From the IMG/VR virus record IMGVR_UViG_3300032116_015770: 64,000 nt of DNA; one strand, written 5' to 3'. Each line of letters opens with the position of its first letter. Within the stretch, counting starts at the first letter, position 1. This DNA comes from a virus. The notes beneath the pieces are model-generated. The model did not search any database, was not told where the DNA came from, and saw only the letters and a list, made by a program, of their open reading frames with translations. A program made the position numbers and the translations under genes. Positions 1 to 49,888 of the stretch are shown here, in pieces.

Positions 1-33
1 AGATTTTTTTATGTCTTCTATTGCTTTTTTCAT
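1..33 (-). CDS. 5' end of a gene running off the window (MKKAIEDIKKS...), possibly tape measure/hub gp29-like
   Basis: ATG at 33..31 overlaps the gp51 stop (TAATG coupling); product guessed only from position downstream of gp26/gp51. Confidence 0.35.
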   Translation of the reverse strand, partial: MKKAIEDIKKS

Positions 34-230
34 TATAGGTGCTTACTATTCTGTTGAAGAATTTTTAATTTATCGTTTTCTTTTTTAACATGATCAACCA
101 GAAGAGCTACGTAAATTTCCCTTTCCCAGGGTAACATATTTTCTAATTCTGTCAACGAGTACTTGTGATGTTGCATTAACGCAAAATTTAAAGTATAATA
201 ATTAAGTAAGTTATCTTGAGAAAGGGTTAT
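33..230 (-). CDS. gp51: baseplate hub assembly catalyst gp51-like; not in the ORF track; probably reached by -1 frameshift from gp26
   Basis: Manual translation ITLSQDNLLNYYTLNFALMQHHKYSLTELENMLPWEREIYVALLVDHVKKENDKLKILQQNSKHL*; NFALMQHHKYSLTELENM.PWER.IY is the gp51 signature of aquatic T4-likes; first ATG only at 176. Confidence 0.85.
   Translation of the reverse strand: MTLSQDNLLNYYTLNFALMQHHKYSLTELENMLPWEREIYVALLVDHVKKENDKLKILQQNSKHL
171..199 (+). promoter_or_regulatory. candidate sigma70 promoter antisense to gp26
   Basis: TTGCAT(171-176)-N17-TATAAT(194-199). Confidence 0.4.
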
Positions 231-922
231 ACGAAAAAATTTTGTAATCCGGTTAATTTAGTAACATTATGCTTACCACACTCATTACAATCTGCTTCTA
301 TAGTCTGTACAACTTTAGGAGAAGTTGTAAAAAACTTCTCTATTTTTTCGAACTGAGATTTTGTAAAAGATTCAACAAACTCTCTTAATTCGTTTTTAGT
401 CTGATCCTGTGCTTCATAGTATTCATCATTACTATAAACACCTTTAATACTGTTAGCAATTAACTCAATAATATCATCTGTACTACCATCTCCGATAACA
501 TTTACCACATCATCAAATACTGGATAATTCATCTCAATACTATACATATCCGTTAACTTTATAATATTAGAGTGATCAGGTTCTTTTTCAATACTAACAT
601 TTTCAATATTATAAGTTGCATCGATCTTATTTCCACATTCACAATTTACAATTACTTCTACTATTTCACTAATAGATTTTGCCCTTAAGTGTAAAAAGAT
701 GTACTCTACATCGAAATGCGGCAGTTTATTAACTTGTAACTTATTAAAGGTACAAACATCTACTAATTCTCTTACAACTCTAGAAACTTCTTCTTCATTA
801 GCGTCAGTTAGTGTTAATAAAATCTTATGTTCTTTTACTAGAAAAGGTCTATATGAAATTGGTTTATTGGTTGAAGGTAAAATCAATTCATACGTTGGTG
901 TATCTAATTTTGGTAAAGCCAT
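227..922 (-). CDS. gp26: baseplate hub assembly protein gp26
   Basis: MALPKLDTPTYEL.LPS...YRPFLVKE.KILL, LRAKSI, two CxC/CxxC motifs, C-terminal GLQNFF. Confidence 0.9.
   Translation of the reverse strand: MALPKLDTPTYELILPSTNKPISYRPFLVKEHKILLTLTDANEEEVSRVVRELVDVCTFNKLQVNKLPHFDVEYIFLHLRAKSISEIVEVIVNCECGNKIDATYNIENVSIEKEPDHSNIIKLTDMYSIEMNYPVFDDVVNVIGDGSTDDIIELIANSIKGVYSNDEYYEAQDQTKNELREFVESFTKSQFEKIEKFFTTSPKVVQTIEADCNECGKHNVTKLTGLQNFFV
233..239 (-). other. putative -1 ribosomal frameshift slippery heptamer T TTT TTC
   Basis: Minus strand AAT TTT TTC GTA TAA at the end of gp26; the -1 frame continues into gp51. Confidence 0.65.
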
Positions 923-934
923 TATATCTCCTAA

Positions 935-1636
935 TTAACCAAATGATCCTGCTCCTACTTGTTGTCCGTTTTGATTATCTAAACCATCCGCCAGTCTAGG
1001 GGAAGGGCTTTGGATAGGCTTATTCGAAACGCTCTTATTAGCAGCTGCAGTAGTAACTGTCTTATTAACAAATATAGGTGTGGGTACGTCAGCTACTCTT
1101 GTAGTGCTTAAGTCTCTCCAATAACGATATGCAAATAAAACATTTAATCTATGTGTTTGATTAGTTGAGTTGTGATTAAGATCTAATAAATTTGCATTTC
1201 TAGGAAATGCATCTATTAACTCAACTTCATACGTAATATTTTCTTCTTCATCTAACTGTCTTATAATAACAGTGCCTTTATAATCATTTAACCAACCTAC
1301 AGTATAGCTATCTTTATCTACTACGGAATGCAACCAAGAATCAAAAAACCTTTTAATTTTCATCTCTCTGTCTAGATGAAAAACAATAGATGTACCTTCA
1401 CCACCATAATCACTTGTGATTGGTTTTTGGTATGCAGGTCCAAATATCTTAAATGGTTTAGTTTGAATATTAAGAATAGGGAAAGAAGCCTGCTCAGCAA
1501 ATAAACTTACTAAATCTGAACTCTGTCTAAGAGCAGCAGGGGGAATAATTTGAATTTCAAAACGATTAGTTCTAGCTAGACTTTTAGCTAAAAGAGTGGC
1601 TCTAAAATCCGCAATTTTAAAATGTGCTTTATTCAT
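935..1636 (-). CDS. gp54: tail-tube-fold baseplate protein (gp54 / gp19 paralog)
   Basis: LARTNRFEI...FFDSW...IRQLD...ELIDAFP...LNVLFAYRYW tube fold; position next to gp2. Confidence 0.7.
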   Translation of the reverse strand: MNKAHFKIADFRATLLAKSLARTNRFEIQIIPPAALRQSSDLVSLFAEQASFPILNIQTKPFKIFGPAYQKPITSDYGGEGTSIVFHLDREMKIKRFFDSWLHSVVDKDSYTVGWLNDYKGTVIIRQLDEEENITYEVELIDAFPRNANLLDLNHNSTNQTHRLNVLFAYRYWRDLSTTRVADVPTPIFVNKTVTTAAANKSVSNKPIQSPSPRLADGLDNQNGQQVGAGSFG

Positions 1637-46064: not shown

Positions 46065-47738
46065 ATGGCATTTCAGCTTTCACCAGGCGTGCTAGTTACA
46101 GAGAAGGACCTAACTTCGGTCGTTCCTTCCGTTGCTACTACAGCCGGCGGCTTTGCTGGCGCCTTCCAATGGGGACCTGCTGAGCAGGTTGTGACCGTAG
46201 ATTCTGAAAATATGCTTGTAGAGAGATTTGGTGTACCTGACGATAACACGTACGAGTCATTCTTTACTGCTGCAAACTTCCTATCATACGGTAACAATCT
46301 ACAAGTGGTTAGAGCAGTTCCTGCTGGCGCACGAAATGCAGTTGCTAATGCATCTGCTACAGCCGTATTAATTAAAAACGAAGATCAATATGTTGGATCA
46401 TATCAAGATGGTGCAGGAAATGTAGGAGAGTTCGCAGCTAAGTATCCTGGTACCCTAGGTAATGGAATTAAAATTTCCATGGCTGATGGAGACACATATA
46501 GCACCTGGGCATATAAAGATTTATTCGACGCAGCACCTAATGTATCACCTTACGCATCAAGCTTTGGTGCAACTCGTGATGAGATGCATATCATTGTTAT
46601 TGATGCTGATGGTAAGTGGACAGGTCAAAAAGATACTGTTCTAGAAAAATTCCCATTTGTTTCTAAAGCTAAAGACGCAAAAAGATCAGACGGTACATCT
46701 ATCTATTACAAGAACGTAATTAACGACCAGTCTAAGTATATTTGGTGGATGGATCATCCAGCTAATATGACTAACTGGAATACCGCAGCTGATGGTGGTA
46801 CAGTGTATGATGTTTTAGCTTCTAACGTTACTGTAACATTAAGTAACGGTACTACATCTACCACACCAGTAGATGCTAATATTATTTCAGCAATCAATCT
46901 ATTCAGCAACAGTGAAAAGTTTGACATCTCCTTATTCCCTGTAGGCCCTGCCTCTTCAGCAGTAGCAGCTGCTGCTATTGCAATGGCAGAAACTCGTAAA
47001 GATTGTATCGTGTTCTTATCACCTGAAAAGTCTGATGTAGTAAACAATATTGGAAGTGAAGCAACAGATTCAATTGCATTTAGAAATCTACTCTCATCTT
47101 CCTCGTATGCTTCTATAGACTCGGGTTGGAAGTATCAATACGATAGATATAACGATGTATATCGCTGGGTACCATTAAACGGAGATACAGCCGGTCTATG
47201 TGTAAGAACTGACTTTACTGCTGATCCATGGTTCTCACCAGGTGGGTTTAACAGAGGACAAGTTAAGAATGTTGTTAAGCTAGCTTTCTCCCCAAGTGCT
47301 ACTGAAAGAGATAGCTTATACAAAGCAGGAATAAACCCAATTGTTACTTTCCCAGGTCAGGGTACTGTCTTGTTTGGTGATAAGACAATGCTATCAAGAC
47401 CTTCAGCGTTTGATAGAATTAATGTACGTAGATTGTTTATCGTACTTGAAAAAGCTATCGCTGTGGCTGCTAAGTACCAACTGTTTGAATTCAACGATGC
47501 GTTCACAAGAGCACAGTTTAGAAATCTTGTTGAGCCATTCTTGAGAGATGTTCAGGGTCGTCGTGGTATTGTTGAGTTTAAGGTAGTATGCGATGACACA
47601 AATAACACTTCGGCAGTAATTGATAGAAATGAGTTTGTTGCTGACATCTTTGTCAAACCAGCTCGTTCAATCAACTTTATCCAGTTGAATTTTATTGCAA
47701 CTAGATCAGGTATTTCGTTCGAAGAAGTTGGAGCCTAA
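46065..47738 (+). CDS. gp18: tail sheath protein
   Basis: FQLSPGVLVTEKDLT, F.WGP, PWFSPGG..RG, GDKT, FDRINVRRLF, KPARSINFI.L.F. Confidence 0.97.
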   Translation: MAFQLSPGVLVTEKDLTSVVPSVATTAGGFAGAFQWGPAEQVVTVDSENMLVERFGVPDDNTYESFFTAANFLSYGNNLQVVRAVPAGARNAVANASATAVLIKNEDQYVGSYQDGAGNVGEFAAKYPGTLGNGIKISMADGDTYSTWAYKDLFDAAPNVSPYASSFGATRDEMHIIVIDADGKWTGQKDTVLEKFPFVSKAKDAKRSDGTSIYYKNVINDQSKYIWWMDHPANMTNWNTAADGGTVYDVLASNVTVTLSNGTTSTTPVDANIISAINLFSNSEKFDISLFPVGPASSAVAAAAIAMAETRKDCIVFLSPEKSDVVNNIGSEATDSIAFRNLLSSSSYASIDSGWKYQYDRYNDVYRWVPLNGDTAGLCVRTDFTADPWFSPGGFNRGQVKNVVKLAFSPSATERDSLYKAGINPIVTFPGQGTVLFGDKTMLSRPSAFDRINVRRLFIVLEKAIAVAAKYQLFEFNDAFTRAQFRNLVEPFLRDVQGRRGIVEFKVVCDDTNNTSAVIDRNEFVADIFVKPARSINFIQLNFIATRSGISFEEVGA

Positions 47739-47752
47739 TAGGGAGAGAATAA

Positions 47753-48325
47753 ATGACAACATTTAATATAGAGCGTTTTAAATCTGCTCTTACCAATGGT
47801 GGCGCTCGCCCTAATCAGTTTGCAGTTCAGTTATCATACCCTACGTATGTAACTAACCAAAGCTTAGCTGTAGCGCGTTCACCGTTCTTAGTTAGTGTAG
47901 CAGAATTACCAGGTCAGACTGTTAATCCTGCGGTAGTGCAGTATAGAGGTCGTGAAGTTAAGTTTGTAGGTGATCGTATCTACGCACCATGGACCATTAC
48001 AGTTCTAAACGATTCTGAAATGTCCATTAGAACAGCCATCGAGCAGTGGATGGGAGGTATGGAAGACTATGCGTCTAAGATTGGTCGTATGGAACCTTCT
48101 ACATACATGCGTGACTTCGATGTATTCCAACTAGATAGAAATGGAAACATTTTAAAGTCATACAAGCTTGTAAATGCATTCCCAATTGAATTATCTCCTG
48201 TTGGTCTAGACTTCGGTGCTAATGATCAGATCTCGTCCTTTACAGTGACTTGGACTTATCAGCACTTTACCACATCGAGCAATCCATTGGGTAGCATTAT
48301 TGATTTTGGTAGAATTTTTAGATAA
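47753..48325 (+). CDS. gp19: tail tube protein
   Basis: GGARPNQF.V, YRGR.VK..GDR...WTITV.ND, QLDRNG. Confidence 0.95.
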   Translation: MTTFNIERFKSALTNGGARPNQFAVQLSYPTYVTNQSLAVARSPFLVSVAELPGQTVNPAVVQYRGREVKFVGDRIYAPWTITVLNDSEMSIRTAIEQWMGGMEDYASKIGRMEPSTYMRDFDVFQLDRNGNILKSYKLVNAFPIELSPVGLDFGANDQISSFTVTWTYQHFTTSSNPLGSIIDFGRIFR

Positions 48326-48343
48326 TATTTTTTATATAATTTA

Positions 48344-49888
48344 ATGGCTATTACACTATTTGGCTTTACTATTGGTCGTGACAATAGGCAGCAGGAGTTA
48401 AAGAATCAATCTTATATAACTCCTGTTGCTGAAGATGGTGCTTCTACTGTATCTGCAGGGGGCTATTATGGCACGTATGTAGATATCGACGCATCTGCGA
48501 GATCCGAGTCTGAATTAATAACACGTTATAGAGATATAGCTAACTACCCTGATGTAGATACGGCGGTAGAAGAAATTGTTGCAGAGGCTATCGCCGCTGT
48601 TGACGACGAGCCGCCAGTATCTATTAATATAGATAATTTAGATTTAGATGAAAGTATTAAAGATACTATTAAAGAAGAGTTTGATGAAATACTAAGCTTA
48701 CTTGACTTCAATGATAAAGGTCATGATATTTTTAGAAGATGGTATATTGATGGAAGAGTATATTATCAAAAAGTAATCAATACAGCTCAACCTAAAAAAG
48801 GTATTCAAGAGTTAAGATATATTGACCCGCGTAAGATTAGAAAAGTACGTGAGGTACAAAAAGAAAAAACAAAAGACGGGGTAGAGTTAGTTAAGAAGAT
48901 CGATGAGTTCTTCGTCTACAACGAAAAAGGAATTAGTGTAACACCTGGTTATGCTCCATCTAACAACCAAGGTGCGGGTATTAGAATTTCTGTAGATGCT
49001 ATTGCATTCTGTCCTTCAGGTCTTTTAGATCTAGATAGGAATGTAGTCTTAGGTTATTTGAACAAAGCAATTAAACCTGTGAATCAGCTAAAGATGATGG
49101 CTGATTCTCTTGTCATTTATAGACTAGCAAGAGCTCCGGAAAGAAGAATATTTTATATCGATATCGGTAACCTTCCAAAGCAGAAGGCCGAGCAGTACAT
49201 GAAAGATATCATGAATCGATATAGAAACAAAATCGTCTATGATTCTACTACAGGTGAGATTAAAGACGATCGTAAGTTTATGACCATGTTAGAAGATTTT
49301 TGGCTTCCCCGAAGAGAGGGTGGTCGAGGTACCGAGATCACCACTTTACCGGGTGGTGAAAATCTCGGTCAGATACAAGACATTGAGTTCTTCCAAAATA
49401 AAGTTTATCAAGCATTGAATGTACCTGCTTCAAGATTTAAAGAAGGTAATGGTTTTAATTTCGGTCGTCAGGCTGAAATTAGTAGAGACGAATTAAAGTT
49501 CTCTAAATTTGTAAATCGTCTACGCAAAAAGTTTAATGAGTTGTTTGACGACTTACTTAAGACCCAATTACTTCTTAAAGGTGTTATTGTAGAAGAAGAT
49601 TGGCAGACGATAAAAGAAAAAATTCAATATCGTTATGCACAAGATCAGTATTATCAAGAAATGAAAGATGCTGAAAATCTTCGCAATAGAATGGACGTAT
49701 TAAATCAAATGACACCTTATGTTGGTACATATTATAGTATGCAGTATGTACGTAAAAAAGTTTTACGTTTAACTGATGAAGAGATTGATAATATTAAACA
49801 ACAAAATATGGAAGAACCTCCATCAGTTATGCCTGGTGCACCAGGTTCAGAACAAGCCGCCGCATTAAGCGGCGAAGTAAATCAGTAA
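48344..49888 (+). CDS. gp20: portal protein
   Basis: WYIDGR, IYRLARAPERRIFYID.GNLPK.KAEQY, EDFWLPRREGGRGTEITTLPGG. Confidence 0.97.
   Translation: MAITLFGFTIGRDNRQQELKNQSYITPVAEDGASTVSAGGYYGTYVDIDASARSESELITRYRDIANYPDVDTAVEEIVAEAIAAVDDEPPVSINIDNLDLDESIKDTIKEEFDEILSLLDFNDKGHDIFRRWYIDGRVYYQKVINTAQPKKGIQELRYIDPRKIRKVREVQKEKTKDGVELVKKIDEFFVYNEKGISVTPGYAPSNNQGAGIRISVDAIAFCPSGLLDLDRNVVLGYLNKAIKPVNQLKMMADSLVIYRLARAPERRIFYIDIGNLPKQKAEQYMKDIMNRYRNKIVYDSTTGEIKDDRKFMTMLEDFWLPRREGGRGTEITTLPGGENLGQIQDIEFFQNKVYQALNVPASRFKEGNGFNFGRQAEISRDELKFSKFVNRLRKKFNELFDDLLKTQLLLKGVIVEEDWQTIKEKIQYRYAQDQYYQEMKDAENLRNRMDVLNQMTPYVGTYYSMQYVRKKVLRLTDEEIDNIKQQNMEEPPSVMPGAPGSEQAAALSGEVNQ

Follow-up and report, generated by a model that had tools for sequence, protein, structure and literature searches.

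The 64,000-nt stretch of DNA from a T4-like lake phage analyzed here (the window; IMG/VR record IMGVR_UViG_3300032116_015770) begins with a minus-strand locus in which a T4-like gp26 gene is followed by a short open frame for gp51 that has no evident start codon, and the question raised by this locus is how the gp51 part is translated. The gp26 ORF (227..922, stop included) encodes 231 aa. Inspection of the sequence reveals a Shine-Dalgarno (SD) sequence AGGAG (928..932) 5 nt before its ATG, and its 3' end reads CAA AAT TTT TTC GTA TAA, with the stop codon at 229-227. This end contains a slippery heptamer, T_TTT_TTC (233..239), recognized both from the sequence and by comparison with relatives. 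In the -1 frame, a stop at 260-258 is followed by an open stretch (257 to 36) and a second stop at 35-33; the part of this frame that starts with the two Phe codons (36..239; 68 aa, the gp51 tail) was delineated by profile matches, alignment, codon periodicity and a structural model. The first ATG of this frame, at 174..176, corresponds to Met22 of the tail.

The first-pass annotation had proposed that a programmed -1 frameshift at this heptamer fuses gp26 to gp51. We re-read the minus strand of positions 1-1200, listed its ORFs and translated the segment 260..33, and the coordinates, the peptide and the product lengths (231 and 296 aa) were all found to be correct. The heptamer is present and lies in the X_XXY_YYZ phase, no ATG, GTG or TTG precedes position 176 in the -1 frame, and the ATG of the downstream gene (33-31) overlaps the gp51 stop as TAATG, in agreement with the claimed coupling at 33. 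Sequence inspection also confirmed that there is no AGGAG-like SD sequence before ATG 176, in contrast to gp26 with its own AGGAG. The predicted fusion consists of gp26 residues 1-228 and the 68 aa of the tail, 296 aa in total, with C233 read twice; its predicted tryptic junction peptide is LTGLQNFFR, followed by ITLSQDNLLNYYTLNFALMQHHK. The heptamer of this window is extended at its 5' side to A_AAT_TTT_TTC. A second in-phase heptamer, A_AAT_TTT (236-242, minus strand), thus overlaps the first one directly 5' of it, and the same is seen in approximately one third of the relatives.

Both parts of the predicted fusion belong to known protein families. The gp26 protein matches the Pfam family PF12322 (T4_baseplate; E 1.3e-58, 198.7 bits with a gathering cut-off of 24.5) and phrog_150 'baseplate hub' (E 1.8e-64), and the -1-frame peptide matches phrog_634 'baseplate hub assembly catalyst', that is, gp51 (E 1.7e-27). 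The same peptide also matches positions 226-280 of the 282 positions of the phrog_150 profile, hence some members of the gp26 family carry the tail in one continuous frame. The complete genome of this phage (165,076 bp, with direct terminal repeats) encodes a single PF12322 protein and a single gp51 tail; a separate long gp51, i.e., a second full-length PF12322 gene with the tail in one frame, is absent from it, and the two-gene arrangement of the T4 type was not encountered. No similarity of gp26 to lambda G/T or to the tail assembly chaperone (TAC) families of Pfam was found, and profile searches with gp26 and the tail against PDB sequences gave no matches.

To compare the junction among T4-like genomes, we used 80 IMG/VR loci with 45-67% gp26 identity, six annotated phages (Pelagibacter phage Mosig, P-SSM2, P-RSM6, S-SSM4, Cronobacter S13 and Vibrio KVP40) and the window. 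One IMG/VR locus, truncated before the junction, was dropped, leaving 86 usable loci, and Synechococcus phage Sf-FR1, Vibrio phage D486 and Aeromonas phage PX29 were added to give 89; lake and marine phages from IMG/VR and cyanophages are among them. This alignment was the check suggested by the first-pass annotation. The offset turned out to be invariant: gp51 is in the -1 frame in all 86 loci and likewise in the 89. The heptamer occupies the identical position in 89/89 loci, as T_TTT_TTC in 88 and T_TTT_TTT in one, and gp51 lacks a conserved start across the set. In nearly all of the 86 loci, the distance from the heptamer start to the gp26 stop is 10 nt. In seven loci, a -1-frame stop stands immediately 5' of the heptamer, which confines the frame change to the approximately 10 nt that contain it. 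A tblastn search with the 68-aa tail retrieved 571 phage records; these matches nearly always begin with the Phe-Phe pair and lie partly within the annotated gp26.

The conservation of the heptamer is far above chance. Among 79 unique gp26 coding sequences, its wobble positions are T (79/79), T (79/79) and C (78/79). The codon preceding the Phe-Phe pair is AAT, GAT or AGT, thus specifying three amino acids with an invariable T as third base; all 79 sequences have TTT for the first Phe and 78 have TTC for the second, the share of TTT among all Phe codons of these genes being 80%. The commonest base at 16 other conserved two-fold sites in these genes accounts for only 51-93%. A homopolymeric run of this kind (6 T, and 7 T in one relative) could also act at the level of transcription, when RNA polymerase adds one U in the T6 run and the extra U puts gp51 in frame with no ribosomal slip. 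In bacteria, runs of some 8-9 or more are as a rule required for efficient transcriptional slippage, and the conserved entity here is not run length but the in-phase X_XXY_YYZ pattern, including its 3' C and the preceding NNT codon; we consider this explanation highly improbable.

The stretch behind the heptamer behaves as coding sequence in the -1 frame. From the gp26 stop to the first conserved ATG (50 nt, +13 to +63), the entropy at the three codon positions of the -1 frame is 0.64, 0.55 and 1.14, and stops are found in 0/69 unique sequences in this frame versus 68/69 and 65/69 in the other two. Amino acid conservation and codon periodicity start directly after the heptamer, and the tail alignment is conserved from its first residues, with R3, L6, L11, N13, N18, F19 and L21 at 90% or more. 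Both frames are under purifying selection, which speaks against a decaying pseudogene. An assembly error that splits one gene in the T run might be imagined, given that some sequencing chemistries tend to misread homopolymers; however, 89 independent assemblies and isolate genomes, which come from several families, all share this split, the length of the run and the in-frame stop one codon further on. We regard the chance that the locus is an artefact or a pseudogene as negligible.

The remaining alternative is that no frameshift occurs and that gp51 is made solely as a free small protein. Its translation could then begin at ATG 176 (47 aa) or at a non-canonical codon, or result from termination-reinitiation behind gp26. 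In the tail, Met22 is conserved in at least 90% of the sequences, and in some relatives an ATG or TTG does occur 9-18 nt 3' of the heptamer: in KVP40, D486, Sf-FR1, P-SSM2 and P-RSM6, an ATG is located 12-18 nt after it, sometimes as TAATG over the gp26 stop. Free gp51 produced by coupled re-initiation is possible in those ATG-bearing lineages. The GenBank records that we checked show separate CDSs, and a joined (ribosomal-slippage) CDS was present in no inspected record, those of 2025 included; two inspected records annotate no gp51. However, the annotated starts (ATG at +12, +15, +18 or +63, or TTG at +9) are at differing, non-homologous positions, and the ATGs at +12, +15 and +18 fall in a Leu/Met column of the alignment. 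In most loci the first start codon does not appear until +63, and in the clade of the window the region from the heptamer to +63 contains no ATG, GTG or TTG and yet is conserved, periodic and free of stops. In the predicted structure of the tail (pLDDT 82), which comprises three helices (residues 8-24, 29-33 and 37-67), a start at Met22 would delete helix 1; lying inside this conserved helix, ATG 176 is not credible as the sole start, as far as the model is right. Free gp51 would also leave unexplained the fixed heptamer, the invariant -1 offset and the continuous gp51 of T4. We thus hold an exclusively free gp51 to be very unlikely, and ribosomal -1 frameshifting, as judged from sequence comparison, very probably makes the gp26-gp51 long form.

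The T4 genome offers a natural version of the predicted 296-aa fusion, since its gp51 combines a domain of the gp26 family with the same tail in one frame. Of its 249 aa, residues 1-201 match PF12322 (E 3.9e-52) and residues 147-246 match phrog_634 (E 1.2e-23). T4 gp51 is continuous across the equivalent junction, where the fusion of the window reads NFFRITLSQDNLLNYYTLNFAL. By sequence, T4 gp51 is the counterpart of the long form and T4 gp26 that of the short form. The two arrangements differ in that the long form of T4 is encoded by a separate gene 51, divergent from gene 26 and devoid of the heptamer, whereas this phage has the single-locus frameshift form. At the end of gp26, the heptamer was found in 0/4 two-gene phages (T4, RB69, Ac42 and GAP161) versus 89/89 loci of the frameshift form; gp26 of T4 and RB69 ends with GLKEFFELL, in which Phe-Phe is encoded by TTC TTT.

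A long gp51 in one frame, of the T-even type, was found in approximately 1,375 records, and the frameshift form was found in Kyanoviridae and several genera of Straboviridae. The gp51 of cyanophages has been described as missing about 200 N-terminal residues (Sullivan et al. 2010, PMC3037559); these residues would be missing because the short gp51 is a frameshift extension of gp26. The 'mini-gp51' puzzle of cyanophages and of marine and lake T4-like phages would thereby be settled, with this protein being an extension of gp26 and not a stand-alone 'hub assembly catalyst'. Cronobacter phage GAP161 has separate, co-directional genes for gp54, a long gp51, gp26 and gp25, and Cronobacter phage S13 has gp26 with the tail in the -1 frame. 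This difference indicates that the switch between the two forms happened within Straboviridae. An extended scenario, in which the tail is additionally made as a free protein of 47-57 aa (three products in total) and the frameshift form is ancestral, the two-gene form of T-even phages being derived from it by duplication, seems to us rather unlikely. In that case, translation of the free tail might begin with Met22, which is nearly invariant, or with an ATG coupled as TAATG, as in KVP40-like phages and some cyanophages.

The predicted structure of gp26 points to the function of the pair. The two parts were folded separately, and the AlphaFold2 model of gp26, built from the gp26 alignment (pLDDT 88, pTM 0.83), shows an N-terminal TAC-fold domain (approximately residues 1-90) and a C-terminal domain. 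In a VIA-align comparison with 48,161 chains, the top four hits all match residues 1-93 of the model: Rbstp2171 (3FGX, Z 7.0), the HK97 tail assembly chaperone (2OB9, Z 6.8), YqbN (3KLU, Z 6.5) and the PLE1 TAC (5IR0, Z 5.1); the next chain scores Z 4.3. The four matches comprise 79-85 aligned residues and cover most of each target, with sequence identity of 7-11%, and all four proteins are described as tail assembly chaperones (PMC9603447, PMC12987554). Although the Z scores are modest (about 7), it is unlikely that TACs would take all four top places by accident in a comparison based on a model. Foldseek found no match for the gp26 model in PDB at E <= 0.001, and showed the gp26/gp51 family to be widespread among predicted myovirus proteins. 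The four TACs are single-domain proteins of about 100 aa without a C-terminal Cys4 domain, whereas gp26 has one: the alignment contains four invariant cysteines, C94, C96, C212 and C215, in the C-terminal part of the protein. The sequence suggests that this Cys4 region is a zinc-binding domain appended to the TAC-fold domain. These cysteines form two CxC/CxxC knuckles, and similar motifs are kept in T4 gp26 and gp51.

The genomic context was also examined. Upstream of gp26 lies a tail-tube-like gene (935..1636, minus strand; 233 aa) of the gp48/gp54 tube initiator type (phrog_3629, E 3e-26; phrog_45, E 4e-25), and the syntenic gene of Mosig is annotated as tube initiator. Downstream, a minus-strand gene occupies window positions 1..33 and continues to G000:C1:62915 (G000:C1:62915-65089); it encodes a 724-aa candidate tape measure protein that is rich in A, K, E and G, has no Cys or Trp, and contains two Gly-zipper hydrophobic segments at approximately residues 410-430 and 485-530. 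It matches no Pfam family, shows no BLASTP similarity to T4 gp29 and has a weak phrog match to 'tail associated lysin'; its syntenic counterpart in S-SSM4 is annotated as 'endolysin'. On its identity as a tape measure, nothing decisive came from PHROGs, Pfam, the ESM Atlas or the genes at the syntenic position in relatives. By composition and position, it is plausibly the unrecognized tape measure of this phage group. The setting cited initially, chaperones upstream of a tape measure gene, would hold to the extent that this candidate is one. The sheath, tube (gp19) and portal genes are located at window positions 46065-49888, the major tube gene gp19 being approximately 47 kb from gp26. A complex prediction for the gp19 tube protein and the gp51 tail scored 0.00, which is evidence neither for nor against binding.

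The match of the gp26 N-terminal domain to TACs justifies a comparison with lambda G/GT. According to this comparison, gp26 and the short 'gp51' would constitute one translational unit encoding a tail assembly chaperone pair: (i) most ribosomes would terminate at 229-227 and release the 231-aa short form (TAC-N), (ii) a minority would move back one nucleotide on the heptamer (T_TTT_TTC, 239..233), where tRNA-Phe would re-pair from TTT/TTC to TTT/TTT, and (iii) the slipped ribosomes would read CGT ATA ACC and so on for 66 more codons, yielding the 296-aa TAC-NC with its three-helix C-terminal tail. By analogy with lambda, the N-terminal part common to both forms would coat the tape-measure-like product of the next gene downstream, with the tail serving to recruit tube subunits or partners in the hub. 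The data show how the sequence is built and conserved, that the -1 frame is coding, that T4 gp51 is a homologue and that the fold resembles that of TACs; the ribosomal nature of the slip, its efficiency and the binding partners are what we infer. The initial reading of gp26 and the fusion of about 296 aa as the G/GT equivalents of this phage is supported by the 89/89 loci, the -1-frame coding, T4 gp51 and the TAC match.

A tail-chaperone frameshift was reportedly found to be conserved in long-tailed phages by Xu, Hendrix and Duda, in Mol Cell in 2004. Features that the proposed pair has in common with lambda gpG/gpGT include the following: (i) a shared N-terminus and an X_XXY_YYZ heptamer for the -1 slip, located a few codons ahead of the stop of the first ORF, (ii) a locus flanked by a tube-like gene and a long gene for a candidate tape measure, and (iii) the absence of a strong RNA stimulator, together with a TAC-like N-terminal fold that is predicted for gp26. 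The differences are the heptamer, which is T_TTT_TTC here and G_GGA_AAG in lambda, and the size of gp26, which is about 100 aa longer, with an added Cys4 domain. Lambda G/GT works without a strong stimulator. In the window, no 3' RNA stimulator was detected in the 93 nt after the heptamer (MFE -6.9, z +0.42 versus shuffled sequences); over 84 loci, the mean z of 3' folding is -0.8, and notable hairpins were found in P-SSM2 and KVP40 only. Most relatives have an SD-like GGAGG or GAAGG 9-10 nt 5' of the heptamer, a spacing known from dnaX, while the window has ACCGGA (240-262 region, minus strand). This motif coincides with conserved Leu-Glu-Gly-Leu codons, which read Leu-Thr-Gly-Leu in the window, and we do not claim it as a stimulator. 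With neither a 3' structure nor an upstream SD-like motif in the window, the efficiency of the slip may be low.

The first-pass annotation did not recall such a frameshift as described for T4-like baseplate hub genes. However, gp26 and gp51 were reportedly identified as the tail assembly chaperones of T4-like phages by Vladimirov, Gautam and Davidson (Virology 2022, 566:9-15, PMID 34826709), and according to papers that cite this work the frameshift arrangement is already known for these phages. The PRFect paper summarizes it to the effect that, in place of a frameshift, a short gene and a longer fusion gene are found in some T4-like phages, and a 2025 paper (PMC12846349) cites it for poly-T -1 slippery sequences in T4-like TAC-N genes. 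Judged by these citing papers, the locus of the window has the same family (PF12322 with the phrog_634 tail), the same proposed role and the same poly-T -1 site as the TACs of 2022, and our result confirms the published idea and opens no new one. The arrangement occurs in the 571 phage records retrieved with the tail. The annotations inspected show a pair of CDSs with arbitrary starts or leave gp51 out, and a ribosomal-slippage join could be entered in their place. One GenBank record names gp51 'tape measure protein assembly chaperone'.
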